Shown piece by piece: positions 20,283-45,100 of a DNA stretch of 64,000 bases. Within the stretch, counting starts at the first letter, position 1. The number at the start of each line of letters is the position of its first letter. The position numbers were made by a program, and so were the translations under genes. The notes beneath the pieces were generated by a model, which saw nothing but the letters and a program-made list of their open reading frames with translations, was not told the origin of the DNA and searched no databases. The stretch comes from Omnitrophica bacterium GWA2_41_15 (lineage in GTDB: Bacteria; Omnitrophota; Gorgyraeia; Gygaellales; UBA12090). The stretch spans positions 38,614-102,613 of the forward strand of contig CAKKRH010000010.1 in the NCBI GenBank assembly GCA_919902675.1. The letters are read 5' to 3'.

Positions 20283-20769
20283 GTGTCATTGCGAGCGCTT
20301 TTTGCGAAGCAATCTTTTAACCAACCTTATATCCTATCAGCCAAATCTTCCCATCCCGGGTTCGCTCTTATGATAAGTTCGTTTTTCTTTTGTCTCGATC
20401 CGGCTTTAAGTTGCTTTTCCCTTGAAATGGCTCCCTCTACTTCTTCACAAATCTCATAATAAACCAATTTATTCACGTTATATTTTCGCGTAAAACCTGG
20501 CATTAAGGCGTTTTTATGTTCATAGACCCTGCGCTTTAAATCATTAGTTATCCCGACATAAAGAACCTTGTTATTCCAATTCGTCAAGAAATATACGTAG
20601 TATTGCTTACGTAGCATATTTAAAAAGATTGCTTCGCTTTGCTCACAATCAGACTGTATCATAATAGTAAAATGCGTGTCATTGCGAGCGTAGCGAAGCA
20701 ATCTTTAATTCAGACATCGTCGCAAGTAAGATTGCCACGGTCGCCTTCGGCGACCTCGCAATGACACAA
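20283..20769. mobile_element. Putative small selfish GIY-YIG element: direct repeats GTGTCATTGCGAGCG...GCGAAGCAATCTTT at 20283-20318 and 20676-20707, and an inverted partial copy CTCGCAATGACAC at 20756-20768 next to a GTCGCCTTCGGCGAC hairpin
   Basis: Repeats read directly; the GIY-YIG ORF sits between them, in the intergenic gap of a histidine kinase / response regulator pair. Confidence 0.45.
20327..20617 (-). CDS. GIY-YIG nuclease-family protein (UPF0213-like)
   Basis: YYVYFLTNWNNKVLYVGITNDLKRRVYEH is a GIY-YIG motif. The ORF track extends to 20701, but the extra N-terminus (MLRYARNDTHFT...) is encoded by the flanking repeat, so I start at MLRKQ (20615-20617). Confidence 0.75.
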   Translation of the reverse strand: MLRKQYYVYFLTNWNNKVLYVGITNDLKRRVYEHKNALMPGFTRKYNVNKLVYYEICEEVEGAISREKQLKAGSRQKKNELIIRANPGWEDLADRI

Positions 20770-23151: not shown

Positions 23152-24765
23152 TTATTTCTTTTCCCTGGTTAAGCTAATACCTTGCAAATGAGAGGTCTTC
23201 TGCCAGACATAATTCATCTCTCCATAGGGCCCTCCGGACTTTCCTGTTCCCCCGTGAGTAGACAAGTAAGACGAAAAATCCACATGACGAGAGTTAATTC
23301 TCAGCAATCCGCTGTTATTGATATATCTCACAAATTTCCTGATATACAGATTCGACTTGGCCCAAACAGAAGTCCGCAGGCCGTATTCGTTGGAATTGGC
23401 AAAATGCATCATGGTCTCAAATATCGCATTATCTGAAGAACCTTTAATCCTGACAATGGGTAATAAAGGAAAAAAATTCTCCTCCTTTATACAAAACATA
23501 TCAAATGCGTTCTTATATTCTTCAATCACTATAACTGTAGGCTGCAGGTATGCGCCTTTTTCATCTTTAAATCCTTTATAATTTATTCTATTCCCTCCAA
23601 AAAGTTGCTTTGCGCCTTTAGTCAACGCATCATCAAGAAAGATAAAAAATGAATCCGCTAAAGCCACAGGAGAAAAACAAGTTTCCGGATCCGATGGAAG
23701 ACCCACCTTCATTTTCTTCACCTGCCTCACAAATTCATCTGTGAATTGTTCGTATATGTCACTATGCACTATTGCCGCCTTAGGCACCATACATATCTGA
23801 GTGGAGCCTAAGAAAGCATCCATGAGCGCACTGATGCTTCCTTTTAAATCCGCGTCTTTCCAGATAAACATCATATCATTTCCTGAGAGTTCTAATATCG
23901 GTTTTTTACCTGCCCGCACAATCTCTTCTGCCAGTAATAACCCTTTTTCACTCTTGCCGAAATAGAGTATATCATTCACATAAGGACTTTCCAGCCACTC
24001 CCGAGTTATTTTATCTGAATTACCAACCAGTATATTTAACGTTCCATCGGGGGCTCCATTATTTCTTAAAGCCTCCCCTACAACTTCTTTCCATAAAAAT
24101 ATAGCTGAAACCGGGGCACGCAAAGGAGGCTTAATAATTAGAGAATTTCCGCTTAACAAAGCAAATCCCGCGATTAAAGAACTACTTGCCGCCGCATTTT
24201 TAGGAGGGCTTACGCAAACTACCCCATCAGGCTTACGGGCCCAGTATACTGTTTCATCACCGATTTTACCCACTTCGCGCCACAACTCATCTTTAAAGAA
24301 ATCCAGAGACTCATCTCTATATGCCTTTTCCATTCCTGAAAATTCCCATTCGGCTAACTTCCTAGGATGGCCCTCAACTATAAGCATTTGAATAAATTCC
24401 TCTTTTTTTTCCAAAAGCTTCTTATGAACATCGCCTAATATCTTTCTTCGCATTGACAACGGCATATATCGGAATGTATTGCTTGCGTTATACGCGGACT
24501 CAATCGCCTTTAAATTTGTATCATCCTTTCCGACACAATATTTAGCATAAATATACTCTCGTGCCTCTTCGTTTTCTTCAGCCATCTGGCCGAGTTTTAG
24601 CTGAGTAATAATTCGGTAAGTGCCGCGGAAATCGGTTATCAGCTTGTCCGTATAAGGAAAATACTCATATATGCCGGTATCCAAATCTTTACCATTAACA
24701 AAAAGGGTGAATTTTCTCATAAACCATCCTCTCTTCCCATGGCAAAACAGCCTTGCGCCAGACAT
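23152..24765 (-). CDS. Aldehyde dehydrogenase-family protein
   Basis: ELSGND (ELGGKSP-like), GSTQICMVPK (catalytic Cys region), EENFFPLLPIV, NSNEYGL. The start may be the internal MRKFT at 24720. Confidence 0.6.
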   Translation of the reverse strand: MSGARLFCHGKRGWFMRKFTLFVNGKDLDTGIYEYFPYTDKLITDFRGTYRIITQLKLGQMAEENEEAREYIYAKYCVGKDDTNLKAIESAYNASNTFRYMPLSMRRKILGDVHKKLLEKKEEFIQMLIVEGHPRKLAEWEFSGMEKAYRDESLDFFKDELWREVGKIGDETVYWARKPDGVVCVSPPKNAAASSSLIAGFALLSGNSLIIKPPLRAPVSAIFLWKEVVGEALRNNGAPDGTLNILVGNSDKITREWLESPYVNDILYFGKSEKGLLLAEEIVRAGKKPILELSGNDMMFIWKDADLKGSISALMDAFLGSTQICMVPKAAIVHSDIYEQFTDEFVRQVKKMKVGLPSDPETCFSPVALADSFFIFLDDALTKGAKQLFGGNRINYKGFKDEKGAYLQPTVIVIEEYKNAFDMFCIKEENFFPLLPIVRIKGSSDNAIFETMMHFANSNEYGLRTSVWAKSNLYIRKFVRYINNSGLLRINSRHVDFSSYLSTHGGTGKSGGPYGEMNYVWQKTSHLQGISLTREKK

Positions 24766-24853
24766 TTCTGCTTTTTAATATTGTTTCTTGATTGGCTGAA
24801 GTTTATTTCTACGATATCATTATTCTCCATAATCAAACCTCGCGCAAATAAGA

Positions 24854-24882
24854 AGGCCTTGCGTTATATTCGCGCAAGGCCT
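24854..24882. terminator. Hairpin AAGGCCTTGCG-N7-CGCAAGGCCTT followed by a T-rich tract; terminator-like, after the HTH/HepT/MNT operon
   Basis: Read directly. Confidence 0.4.
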
Positions 24883-24940
24883 TGTTGTTTTATTGCTTTT
24901 GCCTATATTTGAGCTTCTTTTACAAGATTTATTTATTTTC

Positions 24941-25219
24941 TTATTTTGTATCTTCATTTTCCTTCTTTCCCGGCTTCTTTTCATCCCGGGCTTCCCGTTG
25001 GGGAGCCGGACTGGGCTTCCTTCTCTCCCTGCCCTGCTGCTGGTAAACTATCTTCTCATTTATCCAGCGCTCGATGTGCTTACGGTGGAATCTCCAGTCC
25101 GCGCCGATCTTAAAGGCCGGGATTTTTCCTTCCCTAGCCAGCTTATTCACCGTAAAAGGGTGCAGTTTGAGGAAATCACTGACTTCCTTGGTGTTCATTA
25201 TGTCTTTAGCCTTGTCCAT
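24941..25219 (-). CDS. Excisionase-family (HTH_17/MerR-like) DNA-binding protein, copy 1
   Basis: KDIMNTKEVSDFLKLHPFTVNKLAREGKIPAFKIGADWRFHRKHIERWI is an excisionase-type HTH. Start moved to MDKAKD (25217-25219), 3 nt after the HepT stop. Confidence 0.7.
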   Translation of the reverse strand: MDKAKDIMNTKEVSDFLKLHPFTVNKLAREGKIPAFKIGADWRFHRKHIERWINEKIVYQQQGRERRKPSPAPQREARDEKKPGKKENEDTK

Positions 25220-25221
25220 AC

Positions 25222-25641
25222 CTACAATTTCGCGTACGCGCAAATTTTCCGTAGAAATAAATATATATCTTCTATGTCCTTAGCTAGAACGCTATAGACC
25301 TTTTTAAAATCGATTGTTTCGTATTCATGGATAATAATGTTTCTAAAGCTGGCCATTTTACTTAATTTCTCCCCTAACTCCCGGCTGATTATCTTGTGCT
25401 CGGCCAAAACATCAAATAGTTCTGCCAAGGTCGCGGGAACTGCCCAGCCGGCATCAGAAATTATATGGCTGGACATATCAACGCATCCCTGAATAGCCAA
25501 CTGCAGATTATGCAGAACTATATCCTGCAAATCAATATTCTTTTTAAATTCATCAAAGCCGACCTTTTGCTTTTCCTTAAGGCGGCTGAGACTATTCTCA
25601 ATACGGGCTATTTTGGCTTTTATGATACTTATATTTACCAT
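25222..25641 (-). CDS. hepT: HepT-like (DUF86) RNase toxin
   Basis: FRNIIIHEYETID (Rx4HxY motif), 139 aa. Confidence 0.8.
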   Translation of the reverse strand: MVNISIIKAKIARIENSLSRLKEKQKVGFDEFKKNIDLQDIVLHNLQLAIQGCVDMSSHIISDAGWAVPATLAELFDVLAEHKIISRELGEKLSKMASFRNIIIHEYETIDFKKVYSVLAKDIEDIYLFLRKICAYAKL

Positions 25642-26069
25642 TACGCGGCTTTATTAATTTTTGATAATATACCTTCTTCGATTCTATTCTTTATGGGCAG
25701 AAAGTCAAAATACTCCACTATCGCCCTGGCCTCAAAACCGCGCTCGTTTCTATCCGCCCTCTCGTAAACCCTCAGGCCGTTTTTCAAAACATTGTATTTT
25801 AGAAAGGAACCTGCCCGGTTTAAAACTACCACATCCGCCTCCCGGCCCAGAAGCCGGCCTAAGTTGACAGCCAGGTCTATTTGCTTATCGGTATAATCTT
25901 CGGGATTCACCATCTTATCAAACAACACCGCTATATCTATATCGCTGTATTTATGAGGACTACCACCGACATATGAGCCAAAAAGGTAAGCCGCCAAAAT
26001 CGTGCTTTCCTTCTTAAAAACACTGCTTATTTTCTCTAATTCTGTTTCACCAAGCATAGATATCCCCAA
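25641..26069 (-). CDS. mntA: MNT-type minimal nucleotidyltransferase antitoxin
   Basis: LFGSYVGGSPHKYSDIDIAV (GSx9-13DxD), 142 aa. Overlaps hepT by 1 nt. Confidence 0.8.
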   Translation of the reverse strand: MGISMLGETELEKISSVFKKESTILAAYLFGSYVGGSPHKYSDIDIAVLFDKMVNPEDYTDKQIDLAVNLGRLLGREADVVVLNRAGSFLKYNVLKNGLRVYERADRNERGFEARAIVEYFDFLPIKNRIEEGILSKINKAA

Positions 26070-26118
26070 ATGCCTGCCGCCTCATCTTAAAAAACCAGGA
26101 AAACCGCGCCCTCAAACC

Positions 26119-26355
26119 TTAAAGTAGCGGCTTATCGAGTTGCTTACCAGGATTTCTTCTCTCCCTGCCCTGCTGTTGATAAACGATCTTCTCGTTTATC
26201 CAGCGCTCGATGTGCTTGCGGTGGAATCTCCAGTCCGCGCCAATCTTAAAAGCGGGAATCTTTCCTTCCCGGGCCAGCTTATTCACCGTAAAAGGGTGCA
26301 GTTTGAGGAAATCACTGACTTCCTTGGTATTCATTATGTCTTTACCCTTGTTCAT
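26119..26355 (-). CDS. Excisionase-family HTH DNA-binding protein, copy 2
   Basis: The protein core is identical to copy 1 (KDIMNTKEVSDFLK...QQQGRERR). DNA is about 90 percent identical over roughly 200 bp (26158-26356 versus 25021-25222). Confidence 0.7.
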   Translation of the reverse strand: MNKGKDIMNTKEVSDFLKLHPFTVNKLAREGKIPAFKIGADWRFHRKHIERWINEKIVYQQQGRERRNPGKQLDKPLL

Positions 26356-26444
26356 CCTTACCTCATTAGATAAAACCAAACACAATTATAAGTATACTAA
26401 ACAAGCAAATACTTGTCAAGAAAAATAAAGCACACCAAAGAAAA

Positions 26445-26473
26445 AGCCGAACCATTTTCCTGGTTCGGCAGAT
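26445..26473 (-). terminator. Rho-independent terminator (GCCGAACCA-loop-TGGTTCGGC followed by TTTTTCTTT on the minus strand) downstream of the FN3 surface protein gene
   Basis: Read directly. Confidence 0.5.
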
Positions 26474-26617
26474 AGTAAAGAGCTCAACCCGGTTATTTCA
26501 CATTCCACAGAGCAATCTTCCGCGTCCCGGCTCCTTATGCTCAACAAATAACCCCTATATTTATGCTCATTCTCCCCTGGAACTTCAAAGACAAAGAAAT
26601 CCTCACCCGTATGGGAA

Positions 26618-28894
26618 TCATTTTGTAGTAATGCTTGCTGTTTTGGAGAAATCCGATGCTGATGAGCCTTTATAGGCCCGGACCTTAAAATAATAGGTAG
26701 TTTTGCTTTTCAGGCCGTGCATATGCATAAAGGTTGTATTCTTTCTATACTTCGGCTTGCTAACTGAGTTCTCTGAGCCGCTTTTCCAGAAATACAGCTC
26801 AAACCCGTCTTCATTACTTGAGTTATCCTGCCAGCCTACCTTGAGTGAACTATCCCAGTTTGTGGACACCCTAAGATTTGAAGGAGCTTTTGGTTTTATC
26901 CCCGTATCCTTAGCCGGAGTGGTAATTGTGGCGGTGTTGGAATAGCTTGAATTCCTGGATTCGCTGGATTCCTTATAGGCTTTAACCCTGTAGTGGTATT
27001 TGGTATTGGCCTCTACGCTTGCATCGCTGTAGGTTTCCTTATTTCCTTCAGCAGAGGCAATCTGGGTAAATTGCTCTGTGCCTTCCTTCCTGCGTTCTAT
27101 CCTGAAGCCGGACTCATTAACAGAGTTATCCTCCCAGGTAAGCACAACAGAGCTTGAAGAAGCCGCCCTGGCCGAAAGATTGGTTGGCGCGCTTAATCTC
27201 TGATTGTAGGCATTACTCCCCGTGTTCACTGATACCGTATTTGAATATTCCGATTCTACCGAGCCTTTATAGGCCTTGACCCGGTAGTAATAGGTAGAAT
27301 TGGAATTAAGGATTACGGTATCATGGCTGGTGGTTCCTGCCTCTACGCTGGCCAGCGAGCTAAAGGATCCCGAAGAGCCTTGCCTGTATTCAATCTTAAA
27401 TCCATCTATCGTATCATCTGAATCATATTCCCAGCTCAAGGTAAGCCCGGATGAAGAGGTGAACTCCGCGCTTAAGCTTAAGGGAGCGCTAAGAGTAGAC
27501 ACGCTCAGTGTGGCGCTATCCTCGCTTGACCAGCGGCCGTTATTATCCTTGACCTTGAAATAAATAGTATGCTCACCCTTGGAAAGGGATGAGGTTGTAA
27601 ATGAGCTATCTGAACTTAGATCCCCATCAAGGCTTGAGCGCCAGGAATACGATTCTATACTGCCGCTGTTGATCTTCCCTGAGCCGCTAAATGATACCGA
27701 TTCTCCCTTATTCACGCTGCCTGAGCCTGCCGAATCAATAGAGGCGATAGGCGGATCAAGGCTTAGGGTGCCGTCACCTAAGAGGGTAATCCCATTAAGA
27801 TTACCGCGTGAGCTTGAGAGGTATTCTTTATTGAACCAAATTTTATACGCCTCTCCCAGAGTTTTCCTTTGATCTTTTCCTAAGGGGGGATAAAAATAGG
27901 AATACATTGTTATGCCGCCGGCATTAGTGGTCCCCAATGACGCCAATCCGTAGGTTTTTGAAAAAATGTAATGGCCGCCTAAGTAATTATCCGTATTATA
28001 CGCCGACGAGGTGCACGCAAAAAGAAGATAAAATAAGGATTTAGGGTCGGTATCGCGCACATCAGAATATTTTACCAGCCTGTTCCAATTATTTTCGAAT
28101 AAATGCTCATGCGCTGTTGAATGCGCCATTATATGTATCCATTCGTAATTATCTTTAAGCCTTTGCTTGTAGTCTGTATAGGAAGTGGCGCTTTTATCGC
28201 TAACAGTAGTAACATCCAAGTAGGCCTTGTCCAAATACGATTTTGAGGTATACCAATCATCATCTGGATAAAATAGGGCACGCTTTGTGATGGATAGTTC
28301 TCCCCTGCGGTATTTTTTATTTTTGTCGAAATAATTCTTTAGTATGCCGGCTTCATCCATATCGCTGCGTTCCACGGTTGAGGCGGTTAATCTTCCAAGC
28401 CATATCTCGGTTCCTATGTCTCCTGAGCCAGCGGTATGGGAATCATAGTATCCGTCGCCAAATATGTTATCCGACCACTGACCATCTAAATCCATATAAA
28501 ATATATCCGTAGGGAAGGGGTATTTCTTTTTGTATTCATCATAGTATTCTTGAGTTGTTTCGCAATAATAGGCGATGGGCAAATCACCGATAAACATTAC
28601 TCCTTCAATGCCGGAATTGTCATAACAGCTTTTGATATAGTTTTTTAATTCTTCTGCGGTACCGTCAATGAATTTTGCCGCGCTTACCTTATAGCTTTCA
28701 GCTTCTAAATCCGAGATGTATTGGCTTAAGGCCTTATTTACCGAGCTATAGATATCGGAATTAACCAATACAAGGATATTCTTACTCCCCGTCTGTGAGG
28801 CATATATCTCGTCATATTGGATTCCGGCTGATACCGAAGACGCGGCGCACAAAAGTACCGATAGGCTCATTATATAATATAATTTTGTTCTCAT
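26618..28894 (-). CDS. Secreted multidomain protein: N-terminal clan-CD (gingipain/C25-like) peptidase-like domain, Ig-like region, three FN3 repeats
   Basis: Signal peptide; His-then-Cys order (IMAHSTAHEH ... LLFACTSSAY); three repeats of the form LSAP..L....W.D.S..E.GF.IE.R; 758 aa. Confidence 0.55.
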   Translation of the reverse strand: MRTKLYYIMSLSVLLCAASSVSAGIQYDEIYASQTGSKNILVLVNSDIYSSVNKALSQYISDLEAESYKVSAAKFIDGTAEELKNYIKSCYDNSGIEGVMFIGDLPIAYYCETTQEYYDEYKKKYPFPTDIFYMDLDGQWSDNIFGDGYYDSHTAGSGDIGTEIWLGRLTASTVERSDMDEAGILKNYFDKNKKYRRGELSITKRALFYPDDDWYTSKSYLDKAYLDVTTVSDKSATSYTDYKQRLKDNYEWIHIMAHSTAHEHLFENNWNRLVKYSDVRDTDPKSLFYLLFACTSSAYNTDNYLGGHYIFSKTYGLASLGTTNAGGITMYSYFYPPLGKDQRKTLGEAYKIWFNKEYLSSSRGNLNGITLLGDGTLSLDPPIASIDSAGSGSVNKGESVSFSGSGKINSGSIESYSWRSSLDGDLSSDSSFTTSSLSKGEHTIYFKVKDNNGRWSSEDSATLSVSTLSAPLSLSAEFTSSSGLTLSWEYDSDDTIDGFKIEYRQGSSGSFSSLASVEAGTTSHDTVILNSNSTYYYRVKAYKGSVESEYSNTVSVNTGSNAYNQRLSAPTNLSARAASSSSVVLTWEDNSVNESGFRIERRKEGTEQFTQIASAEGNKETYSDASVEANTKYHYRVKAYKESSESRNSSYSNTATITTPAKDTGIKPKAPSNLRVSTNWDSSLKVGWQDNSSNEDGFELYFWKSGSENSVSKPKYRKNTTFMHMHGLKSKTTYYFKVRAYKGSSASDFSKTASITTK

Positions 28895-30041: not shown

Positions 30042-30659
30042 TTATTTTGCCGGATTATCGATGCCCGCGGCGCCATAAAATACTGAAATATGCCTATCAG
30101 GGCTAAATTTACTACCCCAAATAACCCTGCCATAAGTTCTAAAAAAATGTTCAACATGCGTTTTAAAGCTAAAAGACGCGCTTGAACGCGGGCTTTTTGC
30201 CAGCGCCTTACCCCACAACTTAGCCAACTTCAAGGCCGGCACGCGCTGTTTCCTGAAAACCCTTACCAAATCATCAACATCAGGGTCTAAATATCTGGCG
30301 ATTTTACCTATGGACCAATAGGCCGGCTCAAGAAGCATAACTATAACCCTTCCAAATCTTTTATAAGGTATCGCGTGGCGCTTATAATCTAAAAAAGTTA
30401 TTTGCGACCACCTATCTATATCTTCTGAGAAATTGACTGCGACACCGGAAACCGCTGATGTCCGTTCTATGGCATCCTGGGCGTCTGCGAAATATTTCTT
30501 ATCACAGCGGACGGCAAAATCTATATCCAAACTTGGCCGCGCTCCGCCTAAAAGATTCCCCGCGGCGCAACCGGTAAGAAAAATCTTCATACCGCCCTTA
30601 ACCTTATTAGAGTTTTGGCCCAGTTTAGAGAAAAAATCATCTATATTCTTTTTATTCAT
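30042..30659 (-). CDS. Putative minimal nucleotidyltransferase-fold protein (candidate toxin/Abi partner of the XRE protein)
   Basis: LTGCAAGNLLGGARPSLDIDFAV fits G[S/C]x13DxD. Overlaps the XRE gene by 8 nt. Confidence 0.35.
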   Translation of the reverse strand: MNKKNIDDFFSKLGQNSNKVKGGMKIFLTGCAAGNLLGGARPSLDIDFAVRCDKKYFADAQDAIERTSAVSGVAVNFSEDIDRWSQITFLDYKRHAIPYKRFGRVIVMLLEPAYWSIGKIARYLDPDVDDLVRVFRKQRVPALKLAKLWGKALAKSPRSSASFSFKTHVEHFFRTYGRVIWGSKFSPDRHISVFYGAAGIDNPAK

Positions 30660-31152
30660 TTATCTTTAGATTTAATAACTTATCCTGCCGAGACAACAAA
30701 TTATCGGCAACTTCTTTTCCAATTCTTGATTTTAACATAAGCCAACTATTTATACATGCCTTGCGCGTCTTAATGGTATTTTTATAAATCTTTTTTTGGG
30801 CATTGATTCTATTTTTAGTTATTTTTGAAAAAAGGCTGCCGATAGTCCTGTCCTTAGGGTTTAATTTATAAAAGGCCGCACCCAAGCTTACCTGTACGGT
30901 ATTTTCTAATACCTTGCGCGGCCAGCTGGCACTCTTATTAAGTTCAAGAGGCGCAATACCATCCACCAATACACCAGGCTTTATCCCCAAGGCAAAAGAA
31001 AGCGCCCTTAATGTGGCTACGGTAATATCCTGCCTGCCATGCTCTATAGCGCTAAGATTAGGCCTGGGAATACCGGCTCTCAGCGCCAATGATTCCTGGG
31101 ACAATCCTTTCGCCAAACGCCACAAACATATATTTTCCCCCAAACTAATCAT
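30652..31152 (-). CDS. XRE-family helix-turn-helix protein with C-terminal extension
   Basis: LAKGLSQESLALRAGIPRPNLSAIEHGRQDITVATLRALSFALGI is a Cro/C1-type HTH. An AATGTAG-N8-CTACATT palindrome lies upstream at 31161-31182. Confidence 0.7.
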   Translation of the reverse strand: MISLGENICLWRLAKGLSQESLALRAGIPRPNLSAIEHGRQDITVATLRALSFALGIKPGVLVDGIAPLELNKSASWPRKVLENTVQVSLGAAFYKLNPKDRTIGSLFSKITKNRINAQKKIYKNTIKTRKACINSWLMLKSRIGKEVADNLLSRQDKLLNLKINE

Positions 31153-31235
31153 GATTATAATGTAGCATATTTACTACATTATGTCAATATAGTTTCTATT
31201 TCGGTATGAAGCTTTGATTTATCAACAAAAAACCG

Positions 31236-31262
31236 AACAAGATGTTCGGTTGCGGATAAAGC
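31236..31262 (-). terminator. Rho-independent terminator (AACCGAACA-aga-TGTTCGGTT with a T-run on the minus strand) after vapC
   Basis: Read directly. Confidence 0.5.
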
Positions 31263-31288
31263 GGCCTTCCGGAAAAGACATATTATCG

Positions 31289-31657
31289 CTATCTTAAGAT
31301 AACCACATTATGAAGCCCAAGAAAATGTTTATCACTGGTAATTAATTTTGCCTTCTCCTGCTGGGCAGTAGCATAAATTATCGCGTCCGCCATAGCAAGA
31401 TTGTATCTAAGACTAACATCTGCCGCTGTCAAAGCCAAACTATCATCCAAGACCACAACCCTGGCCTTACCCATATGGGCGACGGCCAAAAGCGCGTCTT
31501 CCTCGCTTCTCTCCCTTTTAATCTTTTTATAGACCTCATAAATAATTAACGCTGGAACAACGATTTCCTCGATCTTTTCCAGATAGGAGAAATACTTTTG
31601 CGCGAGCGGTCCATCAGTAAAGAACTCCAGCCATCCCGATGAATCAACTAAATTCAT
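31289..31657 (-). CDS. vapC: PIN-domain toxin VapC
   Basis: MNLVDSSGWLEFF...LITSDKHF; PIN acidic residues present; 122 aa. Confidence 0.8.
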   Translation of the reverse strand: MNLVDSSGWLEFFTDGPLAQKYFSYLEKIEEIVVPALIIYEVYKKIKRERSEEDALLAVAHMGKARVVVLDDSLALTAADVSLRYNLAMADAIIYATAQQEKAKLITSDKHFLGLHNVVILR

Positions 31658-31863
31658 ATCCTCTGGCTATGGTCGCGCGGCGACTTAATGTTCATGCCTT
31701 TAATGTATCCGCGGAATTCCTTCAAAGGCTTTCCGGGAACCAATGTAATCAGCCCTTCCTTAACCAGCATCTCTATCTTCTGGCCGCTTTTTAAAGAAAG
31801 CGTCTTTCTTATTGCCTTAGGGATAACTACCTGATACTTCGGAGAAAGCGTTACTTCAAGCAT
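31654..31863 (-). CDS. vapB: AbrB/MazE-type antitoxin VapB
   Basis: 69 aa, SpoVT/AbrB-like swapped-hairpin N-terminus (KYQVVIPKAIRKTL). Overlaps vapC by 4 nt. Confidence 0.7.
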   Translation of the reverse strand: MLEVTLSPKYQVVIPKAIRKTLSLKSGQKIEMLVKEGLITLVPGKPLKEFRGYIKGMNIKSPRDHSQRI

Positions 31864-32044
31864 CGATACATACTCCTTCCAACGATTTGATTATCGTTAA
31901 ATAAAGTATACAACATTTTCACAAAAAAATCAACTTTTTTCCCGACAACAACTGACCCCTCTTTAATCTTTAACCCTCTGCAGGGTTAAAGATTAAAGAA
32001 CAGACTCATCAGTGGTATTTTCGAATAAGCGAATAAGCGAATAA

Positions 32045-39199: not shown

Positions 39200-42100
39200 T
39201 TATTCGATTTCATAGCCTCGGTTTAAACGCCTTTGCCAGATTTTCCCAGGAAGTGTATTCTCTCCACCATGTTTTACTCCAGGCACATATAGATCAGATT
39301 GCTTAACATTCAAGTCAAAATGATATTTCCCTTTTCCAGCACCTATGCCTAATTTTGATTCTATGGTAGTGGCTCGTGTTCCTTTTGGAAATGCATCTGC
39401 TTTCGTAACAAAGGCGTGCCTATTAAGTTTTCCAGCTTGTTCCATAGCTTCTTTCCCCGCTTTATTAGTATAATGCCGTACCCTGGTTAAGTCATCACCT
39501 TTATTTATCACTTTACTCGCTATCCCAGCCCCACCTGGTACTCCCGGAGCAAGTAAAGCAAGAGAATCTGCAATTAACCCTAGTCCATTCATAAAGCTGG
39601 GGGTATCATTGAATTGCTTTATGGATTGACAAAATGAAGTAATATCCCAAAAGGTTTCCCAAAACCCTCTTGGGGTTGGAGCTTCACTAAGGCTAGAGGC
39701 TTCGCCGTAGGTGAAGCCGCTGGAGATACCTGTGACCAAACCAGAGCCGAAGACTCCACCCCAGAAACCTTCCGCTCCATTCTGCTGATATGCGGTTATC
39801 CCAGAGGCGATCACCACTCCAGCATCAAATATCTGCCGGCCAACATTTTTAAAAATTCCGGCTACCCCCTCCCCTAGTATCCCTGTCCCTAAACCAAACG
39901 CTGCTCCCCATAGCGCACCATCACCAGCATTTTGGCCGCTTAATCCCGCGGTAGTGGCTCCTCCCGCGGCTCCGGCTATGGCTCCAGTCAACATCGGCCA
40001 GATAAACGGCGAAGCGATAACCGCTACCAAAGCCGCGACTACCCCGCCGGCAAAACTGTTCCAGAACTTTTTCCAGCTCCATTTATGACCACTCGGATCG
40101 GTGTAATTTATAGGATTGTTGTTACAATAGGAATAACGGTTTAGGTCCTGAGGGTTGTAGGGGTTGGGGACTATGGTATCAGGGGTTATGAAACGGCCTA
40201 TGTCGGGGTCGTAGTATCTGGCGCCGTAGAAGTATAGGGCGGTTGTGGGGTCTTCTTCTTTGCCGGTGTATTTGTAGTTGGTGGTTTTGGTGCCGTCGGA
40301 GAGATATGTCTTGCCGTAGGGGTAATACTCTATACGCTGTTCTTTCTTGCCGTCGGCATCGCTAATCACATTGCTTGAGCCTAGGTGGTCGGAGTGGTAG
40401 TAGTGCGGCTCCTGCAGTCCATTTACCGTAAGGACACGCTGGGAGCCGAGATAGATGTGCTTCTTGGCGCTGTCTTGAGAGTCTACCTCATAGAGGCTGC
40501 CCACATAGGTTGTGGTCAGGCCGGAACTAGAGACATACTTCTTCACCCTGCCTCCGTCTCCGTCATAGGTGAAGTTAGTGGTGGCGCTTGTGGCATCTTG
40601 GTCGTAAGAGAGCTTCCAGGAGGCGTCTTTCAGACAGTGGATAAAATAGGCCTGGCCCACGATCATATTCGCCTCTGTGCCCATTGCTATGTATTTCTTG
40701 CTATCGGTATAATATTCCTGGAGGCTGTCGTAATCGCTGTCACGCTCCAGGTTATTCAAGGCGCTTTTGACTGTGATGCTATTTTTAGAAGGACAGCCAA
40801 TCAGGTTCCAGCCTTTCTTCAGGGATTTGGTCATCTGATCCGAGGAGGTCTTACCGGAGACAGTCAGGCTGACGCTGCTTAGGCTTGAGATATACACCTG
40901 GTAGCCTCTGCCATATTCTAAGCTGGTGAATTGGTTAAAGTCTGAGTTTTTGACATAGTGCTCGAACTTCTCATCCTTAGGGTTATAGCGGGAGATTTGG
41001 TTGTATTTTGAGAAGATGCTTGAGAATACACTGCTTATCTCTAAGCTCTCCGGGATTAGCGGCAGGGCAAAGAAGTTCCAGCCCGGATTTAAGGTCAGAC
41101 TTACCGAGGCGGAAACAGACTCATCGGAACCCTCAGGCGAGGTCTTGGTCAGCCGGTTCTCATAGTCATAGGTATAGTTAATGGTCTTTGATTCTGAGGT
41201 AGTCTTCTCTTTAAGGTTGCCGTTTGAGTCGTATTCAAAGCTTGAGCCGTCGGAGAGGCCGCTTAAGGCGTGGGGCTTGTCCGAATTATAGCTGTAAGTA
41301 GTTGAGCCGTTTGAGAGCATATTGCCAATTGAATCATAGCTGTAATCTATTGAACCATAACTGCCGGAGGCAGAAGTCAGACGGTTCAGGTTATCATAAC
41401 TAAAACTCTGGTTAGAGCCGTATTGGGAATCAGTAATACCCTTGACATTACCGTTACTATAGAACTCATAGGAGAGATTCTGCAAGGTACCCTGGCTGCC
41501 TTCAGTTTTTAGGGTAGAGAGCCTCAAGGTCTTTTCATCGTAGGTGTAGTTAGTCTCTACATCGTTGCCGTATTTGATATAGGTTATCTGACCGCTGGCG
41601 TTGTAGTTTACCTCTTTGACATAGTCTTTATCCATATAGCCGTTTCGCACCTTAGTCGGGCCCTGGGCGGAATATGTGTATTCCAGGTAATTGCTATCCG
41701 GGTATTTGAGCTTAGTTAAGCGATCCAAGGTGTCGTATTCCTTTTCCACGCTGTAGCTGGTTGAGTCTATAGTCTTGGTAGACTTGGTCTCCCGGCCTAA
41801 GCTATCATACCAGAATTCGGTAGAGCCGCTCTGGTCGCTGATCTTGGATAATCTGCCCTTATAGTTCTCTTTAGAACTGTCATCATAAGTATAGCTGACC
41901 AGGGTCTTGGATTCGGGCGAGGTTACCTTCTTTTTGGTTAAACGGTTTAACTCGTCATACTCAAATTCTAAAACCTGCTCTTTGGCATCGGTCTGCTTAG
42001 TAAGGTTACCCAGGTCGTCGTATTCATAACTCCAGACCCCCATATCCGGATCGTCCATCTTGACCTTGCGGCCTAAGGAGTCATAGTAGATAGAACTGGT

Positions 42101-45100
42101 ATTGCCTTTGGCGTCTTTGACCTTGGTTAGGTTGCCCTGGATGTCGTAGGTATAGGTAGTGGTGTAAACTTGGGAGTCGTTGTGCTCTTCCACCTTGGTC
42201 AGGCGACCGTAGGCGTCGTTATAATAAGTATGGTAATTGCCGTTCTCATCAGTCTTGGTAGTGGTCCAGTCAGAGTAGCTGGTTGAGCTATAGCTGCCAT
42301 CCGGGTTAGTGTTCTGGGTCAGACGGCCTACCGGGTCATAGTCAAAGCTGAAATAATAACCGGAATAACTAGGCGAGCTAAAGGAGCTATCGTTACTTAC
42401 CAGATAGGGCAGATACTGCTTATTAACCTGGCCTTTTGAGTCATAGGTTACTATCCCGGAAACCACCTGGTAGCTCTCATCCTGGGCCGGGGATTTAGTT
42501 TCTATCATGCGGCCCAAACCGTCAGAGAACTGGTAGGTGGCCAGGTAATTACCGGAGTAATCGCTTTTGACCTTTTTGGTAACTTTTATGGGCTGACTGG
42601 ATAAGTTATATTCATAGCTTATCCCGGGCAGGCTTTCGCTGTCTTTGGGGCCAATGGCTGAGGTCAACCGGCCCAAGCTGTCGTAGCGGTATTCAGTTGC
42701 CTGGCTGTTGGAGTCGGTAGACTTGGTAACCTGGCCGGTCTGGTAATCGTATTCGTTGTTTAAGGTATGGCCTTTGGAATTGGTGATCTTGGTAGGATAA
42801 CTGTGCAGGGTGGAATCGTATTCGGTTGTAGTAGCGTAGCCTTTAGAGTTGGTGGCCTTGGTGAGATTACCATAAGAGTCATAACTGTATTGGCTGGAGA
42901 GCTTCTTCTCGCTTGCGTCCTGGGAGTTATACAGCCAGGCCTCCTCTTTAGTCAATAAGCCATGGCTGGCTGAGGCATCATAAGAGTCAGCTCCATCATA
43001 ATAAAACCACCTCTGGGTTACTCTTTCTCCGCTTGCGTCCGCAAGTTTGACAGACTTAGGCAGACCGACTATCCAGTCTGAGGTATTATAGCTATACTCC
43101 GTGGTTAGGGTTCTTTCATCGCCGCTTTCGGAGACATTGCCTTGGCTCTGAACCTTGGCGGGGTTGCCGTAGTCATCGTATTCGTAGGTTAGGCGGGTCT
43201 GCTTATAGCTGGAGTCACCGTCATAGATATAGCTGTCGGCCTGGCTCACATAGGCGAAGTTGACCCCGGAATAAAGCTCCTTTTTGCTCCAGGTGTTTTC
43301 AGCTTTGGCATAGAGATTGCCGCCGGAGTCTCTGGTCTCCTGCTTGTAAGGCTTGCCCTTGTAGACCGAGTCCTGCTTAAAATAGCTCTCGCTGTAATTG
43401 CCGTCGCTATCGGTTACTTTGCAATAGCCAAAGCCCCTAAACTCCCGCTCGCTAAAATCAAATACTCCGTCCTTATAGCTGTAGTTAGTGCTGTAGCTAT
43501 TGCCCCGGCCGTCGCTTAGCTGGCTCTGGCTGACCGCGTATATCGGGAAGCTCAAGTCTGACTGAGTATCAGATCCGCTGTTAGAATACTGGCTAGAGGA
43601 TTTATAGGTTATCTCGATGCTGCCGCCTATGCCGCTATCTATCTGTTTTAATAATTCGGGGTATGGGCTGGGATTAATATAGCTAGAGGTCTCGCTATCA
43701 GTGGGATGATGGATAAAATCCAGCTGGCCGTCGGAATTCACATCCAGGACCCTGGTGCCATCGGTAAAATCTCCGGTAGTCATCTTCCAGCTAGAGTCCT
43801 CTTTCCAGCCTAAGCCGGTGTTGATGTAGGTCTTTCGCAAAGAACTGCCTTTATTGATCAGGATATCGGCTAAGCCGTCGTTATTCACATCGGCAAACTG
43901 AGTGGAGTTATCGTTGATGTTGGCATCTGAGGGCGGATCAAGGCTCGACTCCCTGGCCCAGCCGCCTCCGGTATTAAGATAGGTCTTTCTCCCAAGACTA
44001 GAGGTATCGCTGGCTATCACCAAATCCAATAGGCCGTCGGCGTTTAGGTCAACCAATTGCGTGCCGTCCCGTAAGTCACCGTCAGGAAGGGCCCAGGAGC
44101 TGTTTTCGCTCCAGCCGCTAGACTTATTATTCAGATAGGTTATCCGGCTGTCGGAGCGGCAGTAAACATAATCCGCGTAACCGTCACTATTGAGATCAGC
44201 TAAAATCACCCCTTGAGATTCATGCCAGTCATGATACTCATCATACCTGGCTACGGCTATGTATTTACCGCTGGGAAAACTCCAGCCGGAGCTACTCTCC
44301 CAGCCGCTTTGCTTATTGTTTAAATTTATACTATTAATCACACCCCCTTCTTTGGTTTGGAAATTCTGCACCAAGTCCACCCAGCCGTCTCCGTTTATAT
44401 CCGCGAAACGCACCCCCTGGTCCCCGGTGTATGACCAGATATGCGGGCTAATCTGCCAGTTGGTGGTTTCCTTCCAGGCGGAGACGGAAGAATCAAACAA
44501 AAAGCTGTGGTTTTCGGTATAATTATCTCCGTAATACCGCTTTCTGATTATATCCGGATAGGTATCGTTATTCACATCCACAATCACGCATCCGGAATCA
44601 AAGTTGGCGTAAGGGGGGATGCTGTAACTGGTGCCGGAGGCCTGCCAGCCCTGAGACTGCTGTTGATATTCAAAGCTGATTTCCGGAAGGCTTATATTAT
44701 TATCCTGGCCGTAAGTCTTGACCGAGCTAAGCAAACTGCGGCTGTTCTGGGAGGTGGCATAGCTTAAAACATACCGGCGCACCTGCTCATCCTGGTATTT
44801 TACTTTAATCTCGCTTAGCCTCTTGGCCATAGTTGCCTTAAATCCCGGCCGGTAATTAATAATGCTGTCAGAGCGGCTCTCGTAGCTAAATTGGACGCTG
44901 TAAGCCGGCTCAAGTGAATTACCGCTGTTACCGGTATAACTTATCCGGCTGGGATAGAGCTGGTTGTCTTCTTTTGTATAACTTATAGTCAAATAGTTAT
45001 TATAAAGGTCTTCCACCCTGTTCAAAGACCATCTAAATACCTTGGAGCCGTAGTCCTGGCGGCTGGAGCTGGTCTGGCCAAAGTAGTATTTAATCCCGGA

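Follow-up and report, generated by a model that had tools for sequence, protein, structure and literature searches.

Class I pairs of the type VII toxin-antitoxin (TA) family, HepT and MntA, have been described as stand-alone modules of two small overlapping genes with the antitoxin gene first. Their defining signatures are an RX4HXY motif in the toxin and a GSX10DXD motif in the antitoxin, and MntA carries no DNA-binding domain (Yao et al. 2020, PMC7641770). MNT-HEPN modules have also been found inserted within host operons, for example in the lysine operon of Thermus thermophilus HB8 (Makarova et al. 2009, PMC2701414). Here we describe a locus of a Candidatus Omnitrophota genome from Hainich groundwater, located on a stretch of 64,000 nucleotides (nt) of contig CAKKRH010000010.1 that is referred to below as the window. 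Unlike the stand-alone pairs, the mntA-hepT pair in the window sits inside the operon of a host gene for a small DNA-binding protein of the helix-turn-helix (HTH) type and is surrounded by two copies of that gene. The arrangement most likely reflects a lineage-specific duplication of a core HTH gene around an ordinary HepT/MntA pair, and not a new three-part TA system. A literature search on Omnitrophota together with HEPN or TA systems found no description of this locus.

The four genes lie on the minus strand of the window in the order HTH2, mntA, hepT and HTH1. HTH2, the upstream copy (26355..26119), begins with ATG and encodes 78 amino acids with a short tail ending in PLL, and it has kept the ancestral promoter and 5' untranslated region (5'UTR). 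The gene for the predicted MNT adenylyltransferase antitoxin, mntA (26057..25641; 138 amino acids, with an alternative TTG start at 26069), shares one base with hepT, the gene for the predicted HEPN RNase toxin (25641..25222; 139 amino acids), the mntA stop and the hepT start being joined as TAATG at 25641. The hepT stop codon TAG (25224-25222) is followed after a gap of 2 nt by the ATG of HTH1, the downstream copy (25219..24941; 92 amino acids), which has a long charged tail and no promoter of its own. A reading of the window made from the letters alone, hereafter the sequence-only reading, had placed the HTH starts at 26385 (HTH2) and 25243 (HTH1), which correspond to TTG-extended open reading frames (ORFs). 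Pfam matches were all above the curated cut-offs, with HTH_17 in both HTH genes, Polbeta/NTP_transf_2 in mntA and HepT-like in hepT. The whole HTH2-mntA-hepT-HTH1 structure is spanned by a 110-kb contig (L001), and an independent assembly from a different sample (L002) is colinear with window positions 24000-27500 over 3.5 kb at 99.66% identity. The hepT-HTH1 junction is identical in other assemblies. Because an independent contig from another sample is colinear at this level, the HTH bracket is not an assembly artefact, and the gene order and repeated HTH gene of the sequence-only reading were confirmed by the ORFs, the Pfam matches and this second assembly.

Judged by families and motifs, mntA and hepT form an ordinary type VII TA pair of class I and a regular member of the known family. 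HepT matches the NCBIfam model HepT_toxin (NF047751) with 131.7 bits (cut-off 60) and the Pfam family HepT-like (PF01934) with 112 bits (cut-off 23.5). MntA matches MntA_antitoxin (NF047752) with 87.8 bits (cut-off 60), and its Pfam matches to Polbeta and NTP_transf_2 (PF01909/PF18765) score 77 and 53.8 bits. The RX4HXY motif of HepT reads RNIIIHEY (residues 100-107) and the GSX10DXD motif of MntA reads GSYVGGSPHKYSDID. The genes are adjacent and co-oriented, and they share with the described pairs the overlap, the antitoxin-first order, both families and both motifs, which in the window are known from sequence. The type VII identity proposed in the sequence-only reading is thus borne out by the NCBIfam equivalogs and both signature motifs. 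By homology, MntA would AMPylate the tyrosine of the RX4HXY motif of HepT. PADLOC returned a weak mad1 match for the HTH protein and PDC-S09 matches for MntA, and nothing at the system level.

The HTH protein has the domain content and the modelled fold of a small MerR/excisionase-like winged-helix protein. HTH_17 is matched with 52.6 bits by HTH2 and 51.9 bits by HTH1, and the score of HTH2 against the excisionase-type domain TIGR01764 is 36.2 bits, above the cut-off of 28.8. The match to the BldC family (NF033787) reaches 18 bits against a cut-off of 77, and the NCBIfam score for MAD1 is also below its cut-off. An AF2 model of HTH2 (pLDDT 80.6, core above 90) shows a winged helix followed by a long C-terminal helix. 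The best fold matches of this model are the RdfS excisionase (8dgl), BldC (6ama) and Xis of mycobacteriophage Pukovnik (4j2n), which superpose at 1.7-1.8 Å over 48-54 residues, and a PDB sequence search with the HTH profile gave weak matches only (E at least 0.2). The window protein therefore resembles RdfS, BldC and Xis in its above-threshold HTH_17/TIGR01764 domain and its similar predicted fold. It differs from them in lying neither beside an integrase nor on a recognisable mobile element, and in being a syntenic core gene of one phylum.

This last point comes from a scan with the HTH profile over one genome per species, which found 80 loci in 80 different genomes, once in each and nearly all in Omnitrophota. 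The segment AREGKIPAFKIGxDWRF is invariant in the aligned sample, and the HTH2 orthologues in two related loci (L008 and L009) are 90-95% identical. Clustering of the neighbours revealed a conserved gene order, with dihydrolipoamide dehydrogenase (Lpd), LipB and a lipoyl-domain protein upstream. Downstream are a shikimate-DH-like/SRPBCC protein, PlsC and KAS, followed by a 7TM-GAF histidine kinase, a response regulator and an HD protein. No integrase was found within ±10 kb of the HTH locus, and a scan of IMG/VR with the HTH profile returned distant relatives only (38-57% identity), with no sign of a viral gene. Because no integrase is nearby and the chromosomal synteny is conserved in 80 genomes, the HTH gene is not an element-borne excisionase. 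Its distribution and synteny identify it as a chromosomal core gene of Candidatus Omnitrophota that is not a dedicated TA component either. The analysis thereby flags a small regulator that is strongly conserved across the phylum and has a very well conserved promoter.

The cores of the two HTH genes form a direct repeat (family D1) of 212 nt, with the right arm in HTH1 (25014..25225) and the left arm in HTH2 (26150..26361). The arms are 91% identical (19 mismatches in 212 nt) and spaced by 1136 nt, and their longest stretch of identity covers 56 nt (25137-25192). A computed recombinant showed that any crossover between the two arms yields an intact HTH gene of 92 amino acids. Similarity begins no more than about 3 nt from the start codon and stops at codon 69-70, and the C-terminal tails of HTH1 and HTH2 are unrelated. 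Over codons 5-67 (63 codons) the two proteins are identical, with 14 synonymous and no non-synonymous differences (dS, the synonymous distance, about 0.53), and over codons 5-70 there are 15 synonymous and two non-synonymous differences (Fisher p about 2e-10). The same 63-residue core is found in window HTH1, window HTH2 and the HTH protein of L008, which show 14-20 synonymous against no non-synonymous differences at dS values of 0.47-0.97. The protein cores of HTH1 and HTH2 are identical because the family is under extreme constraint, with a non-synonymous distance (dN) of about 0 at dS 0.5-1.0. Purifying selection on both copies, as claimed in the sequence-only reading, holds on the count over codons 5-67. 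By the same substitution pattern, HTH1 in the window lineage was already constrained before that lineage separated from L008 and L103, and has remained so. The synonymous distances do not fit a tree: the HTH1 core of L103 differs from window HTH2 by dS 0.35 and from window HTH1 by dS 1.15, which suggests some gene conversion between HTH copies within genomes. A date for the duplication based on dS was given up for this reason, as gene conversion is the probable cause of these distances.

In members of the HTH family (compared in P0004, P0005, P0011, P0013-P0020), the C-terminal tail closes with a short hydrophobic motif such as ELW, PLL, TLI or GLF. HTH2 retains PLL, and the tail of window HTH1 (24941-25020) reads REARDE versus RELWDE in the orthologues. 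Window HTH1 has thus lost the tail motif with its DNA-binding core intact.

Single-copy relatives without a TA pair, P0020 (L104/L105) and P0019 (L112-L114), have the tail type of HTH1, and the 50 nt preceding the L104 gene can be aligned to the region upstream of window HTH2. In the window, the ancestral promoter and 5'UTR are found upstream of HTH2 only, and the ancestral tail type and downstream flank go with HTH1. Since the upstream match falls on the HTH2 side and the single-copy tail type matches HTH1, these alignments show the ancestral HTH gene to be split, with its promoter and 5'UTR now at HTH2 and its tail and 3' flank at HTH1. Between the two parts lie the HTH2 tail, mntA, hepT and the second core.

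Other relatives present altered states of the duplication. Locus L103, also from Hainich (well H51), is on a contig that starts past the position of the HTH2 stop, and it contains mntA-hepT, the 2-nt gap and a full 92-residue HTH1 (L103 898-1176) with seven amino-acid changes in the otherwise invariant core. L008 and L009 have kept HTH2-mntA-hepT and lack the counterpart of window 25222..25071, so that HTH1 codons from about 50-51 to 92 are left, and this remnant is gathering non-synonymous changes. L102, which shares about 96% identity with L008, carries one HTH gene, a chimera, and no TA pair: the 5' flank and core match the HTH2 side of L008 at 96% identity, the tail and 3' flank match the remnant side, also at 96%, and the crossover falls in the last 15 nt or so of the shared repeat segment. 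Because L102 is exactly the chimeric single HTH expected from recombination between the repeats, loss of the TA pair by this route is well supported by the comparison. In the TA genes, dS is 0.22-0.43 between L103 and L008 and 0.62-0.64 between L103 and the window. L103 is therefore nearer to L008 than to the window, indicating that the full duplication is ancestral to the clade and that the other states are derived. A truncated, L008-like state was considered as the ancestral one and rejected, since L103, the nearer relative of L008, has a full HTH1. Together these loci make up a natural series of intact duplication, decaying second copy, truncated copy and precise deletion. In this series one can follow a TA module as it settles in the operon of a host gene under strong constraint, stays there and is lost again.

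The position directly behind the HTH gene, referred to here as the slot, holds three MNT/HEPN families in the HTH clade closest to the window, all co-oriented with the HTH gene. Family A comprises MntA and HepT (window, L008, L009, L103 and L013), family B a 104-118-residue MNT protein with a PF05168 HEPN protein (L013, L106-108 and L115), and family C a fused MNT-HepT protein of 282 residues (L109, L110 and L010). The modules lie at L013 5266-6435, L106 5287-5860, L115 2312-3056, L109 5298-6146 and L010 3727-3869. No HTH remnant was found behind the family B and C modules in L013, L106, L109 and L115, so TA insertion at the slot is not generally accompanied by a duplication. The slot may be a hotspot between conserved genes, where same-strand insertion is favoured as it leaves the downstream operon unbroken, or the modules may make use of the HTH promoter, and possibly of the protein too; either fits the data. 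L013 carries a family A MNT gene without a HepT partner, followed by a family B pair. This MntA homologue (L013 5266-5682) is about 50-54% identical to window MntA and may have stayed behind as an antitoxin with an anti-addiction role. In P0021, the gene after the HTH gene has no Pfam match.

In the duplication that we favour, a second HTH allele with the mntA-hepT block would have lodged, in the ancestor of the clade, between the promoter and 5'UTR and the ORF of the resident HTH gene. Equivalently, a fragment HTH-mntA-hepT could have entered by a single crossover inside the resident gene. Either route would give the order promoter, HTH2, mntA, hepT, HTH1, hairpin, and an alternative route would be HTH duplication followed by TA insertion. 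All four genes would probably be read as a single transcript from the HTH promoter to a hairpin at 24846-24890. Translation of HTH1 is probably coupled to that of hepT because only 2 nt lie between them, and, as MntA has no DNA-binding domain, the TA pair most likely relies on the promoter of its host. The duplication is unstable, as the 212-nt repeats permit scarless deletion of the TA pair and redundancy permits decay of one copy; both outcomes are present among the relatives. Post-segregational toxicity of HepT would select against deletions and slow the loss of the cassette, which could explain the persistence of the bracket. As in the insertions into host operons described earlier (PMC2701414), the TA pair is present or absent between close relatives at a syntenic locus and is co-oriented within the host transcription unit. 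The window differs from those cases in that the insertion is accompanied by a duplicated upstream host gene, and that the Omnitrophota slot holds three MNT/HEPN families in different lineages.

Several points weigh against this account. HTH2 may have been imported with the block, or the HTH gene may have been duplicated before TA insertion, and co-transcription, translational coupling and any addiction effect are inferred. Dating is blurred by the synonymous distances, with L103 HTH1 nearer to window HTH2 than to window HTH1. Read-through could be lowered by the weak hairpin and U-run in the HTH2-mntA spacer (see below). In addition, recurrent co-oriented occupancy of the slot by three unrelated families is not what pure accident predicts, and the HTH gene and the modules may be functionally linked.

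A rival reading is a genuine three-component type VII system, in which HTH_17 would be the DNA-binding regulator missing from MntA, would autoregulate the operon and is duplicated here. A DNA-binding third partner for MNT-HEPN modules has been speculated (PMC2701414), the absence of such a domain from MntA (PMC7641770) would leave a place for one, and the conserved promoter region could hold its operator. Moreover, the three unrelated families start 0-62 nt past the HTH stop and are always co-oriented, and five of the approximately seven MNT/HEPN modules detected in 687 kb of HTH-centred loci occupy this slot. The HTH gene and the TA pair do not co-occur across genomes, however, as 76 of the 80 genomes have the HTH gene with the same synteny and promoter and no MNT gene directly behind it. 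Conversely, HepT/MntA relatives with 40-63% identity (L088-L101) are found in unrelated contexts with no adjacent HTH gene, and in L017 and L091 the TA pair is 3.5 kb downstream of the HTH gene with two unrelated genes between them. The HTH core has no TA-specific changes, and same-strand insertion is also expected from selection against disrupting the downstream operon. We consider a three-component system unlikely, and the version put forward in the sequence-only reading, with a duplicated regulator, is not supported: a single HTH gene stands beside unrelated genes in L011, L012, L104, L112 and most of the 80 genomes, and the TA pair occurs apart from it in L017, L091 and other relatives. 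Similarly doubtful is a broader proposal, that HTH_17 is the postulated DNA-binding partner of MNT/HEPN modules in Omnitrophota. In that case promoter-less type VII pairs of at least three unrelated families would each have docked directly behind the HTH gene, to be transcribed and autoregulated from its near-consensus promoter, and the bracket would be a trace of cassettes exchanged through homologous recombination in that gene. If the recurrence at the slot does reflect use of the HTH promoter or protein, it bears on the transcriptional control of type VII TA pairs whose antitoxin has no DNA-binding domain.

The repeats themselves could also be taken for the ends of a mobile cassette, a unit of 1136 bp (HTH-mntA-hepT) that would excise as a circle via the HTH repeats and re-integrate, again through homologous recombination, into the HTH genes of other Omnitrophota. 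Direct homologous repeats around a cargo are the product of a Campbell-type single crossover, L102 has the structure predicted for the excision product, 56 nt in a row are identical between the repeats, every crossover within the repeats leaves an intact gene, and the target gene shows high conservation throughout the phylum. Yet deletion between direct repeats requires no dedicated mobility, and the hallmarks of an autonomous or site-specific cassette (its own recombinase, terminal inverted repeats or att sites, multiple insertion sites) were not found. No recombinase or transposase gene lies in the neighbourhood, neither terminal inverted repeats nor att-like sites were detected, and apart from the 212-nt HTH copies there are no flanking repeats. 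The duplication is confined to one clade, apparently as a single ancestral event, families B and C occupy the slot without an HTH remnant behind them, and a single genomic site is occupied, with no evidence of a circular form or a second insertion site. We therefore regard such mobility as quite improbable. Of the cassette in the sequence-only reading, said to move by recombination between the HTH repeats, the loss step stands on the chimeric gene of L102, and gain, circular form and second site are indicated by nothing in the data, with no recombinase nearby. The locus is better compared with Campbell-type or tandem-duplication structures and their RecA-dependent deletion, with which it shares the direct repeats of a homologous segment around cargo and, in the close relative L102, a precise deletion product with an intact chimeric gene. 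It departs from them in the divergence of its repeats (dS about 0.5), which have outlasted speciation, both copies being intact in this lineage, and in that no vector or circular intermediate is known for the unit. Finally, a false duplication could have been produced if two strains, with and without the TA pair, had been collapsed during assembly. Short-read contigs from several samples (L003-L007) do end inside the HTH repeats, and the L103 contig begins exactly past the HTH2-stop position. Such a collapse is extremely improbable in view of the two assemblies that cover the full structure (L001 and the independently assembled, colinear L002), the 19 differing positions and different tails of the HTH copies, and the related metagenome-assembled genomes that have the same layout with a decayed second copy.

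A single strong promoter-like site was found upstream of the four-gene unit, a putative sigma-70-type promoter at 26391..26419 on the minus strand (TTGACA, 17 nt, TATACT; 11 of 12 consensus positions), and it lies upstream of HTH2 only. The corresponding HTH promoter, TTGACA-17-TATAyw, scores at least 10 of 12 in 76 of 83 Omnitrophota loci, and in 65 of these 76 high-scoring loci it is located 60-80 nt 5' of the HTH start. Within the HTH 5'UTR, most lineages carry TATGATTATCGTAAATATGCTAAAA and the clade of the window carries ATTGTGTTTGATTT instead (window 26370-26420, compared over L008-L087 and L102-L115). The conservation of promoter and 5'UTR suggests an operator or leader element. The palindrome ACAAG-N6-CTTGT, which the sequence-only reading had put at 26421-26436, is actually at 26401..26416, where it overlaps the -35 hexamer and the spacer. 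Its 5-bp arms are kept only in the closest relatives, somewhat more distant loci have ACAA...TTGT, and most of the phylum has neither. The palindrome was discounted as an operator because the 5-bp arms overlap the -35 hexamer and are conserved only as ACAA..TTGT in the close clade.

The spacer of 61 nt between HTH2 and mntA (26058..26118, minus strand) contains the weak hairpin followed by a U-run (-25.6 kcal/mol; z-score -1.78, not significant), which may act as an attenuator. On the 3' side of HTH1, a GC-rich hairpin at 24846..24890 (inverted repeat I6) probably ends the transcription unit. It was flagged on the plus strand by the terminator scan, and its orientation is ambiguous; it lies within a segment conserved with L008, L009 and L103. 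The left edge of the unit, common to the relatives, is marked by a terminator-like hairpin with a T-run at 26446..26469 (minus strand), found in the terminator scan at the end of an upstream FN3-repeat gene, and homology with L008, L009 and L102 starts at about 26474-26505. No Rfam family reached threshold over the whole window.

At the right edge, homology with L008, L009 and L103 breaks at about 24801, within the SRPBCC/shikimate-DH-like gene that usually follows the HTH gene. The window retains an N-terminal remnant of 37 codons of this gene (24717..24830, minus strand), beginning MENNDIVEIN versus MENNDAVEIN in L008, and no other homologue, SRPBCC or C1, was found in the window. An aldehyde dehydrogenase gene (23152-24720, minus strand) fills its place. 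Upstream of HTH2, the window has FN3-repeat and HEAT genes, and L008 has an AbrB-like gene followed by an ORF of 92 amino acids, together resembling another TA pair.

Other genes were noted in the window. A GIY-YIG domain gene of 124 amino acids (20327-20701, minus strand) lies between the histidine kinase and response regulator genes, which are directly adjacent in L011, L106 and L112; by this comparison it looks like another small insertion. TA-like genes also lie at 30042-31900 on the minus strand, a few kb upstream of the HTH locus: a MazE-PIN pair, and a gene with an Xre-type HTH that overlaps one of 205 amino acids without a Pfam match. Further upstream, positions 39200-45736 on the minus strand are taken up by a single ORF of 2178 amino acids.

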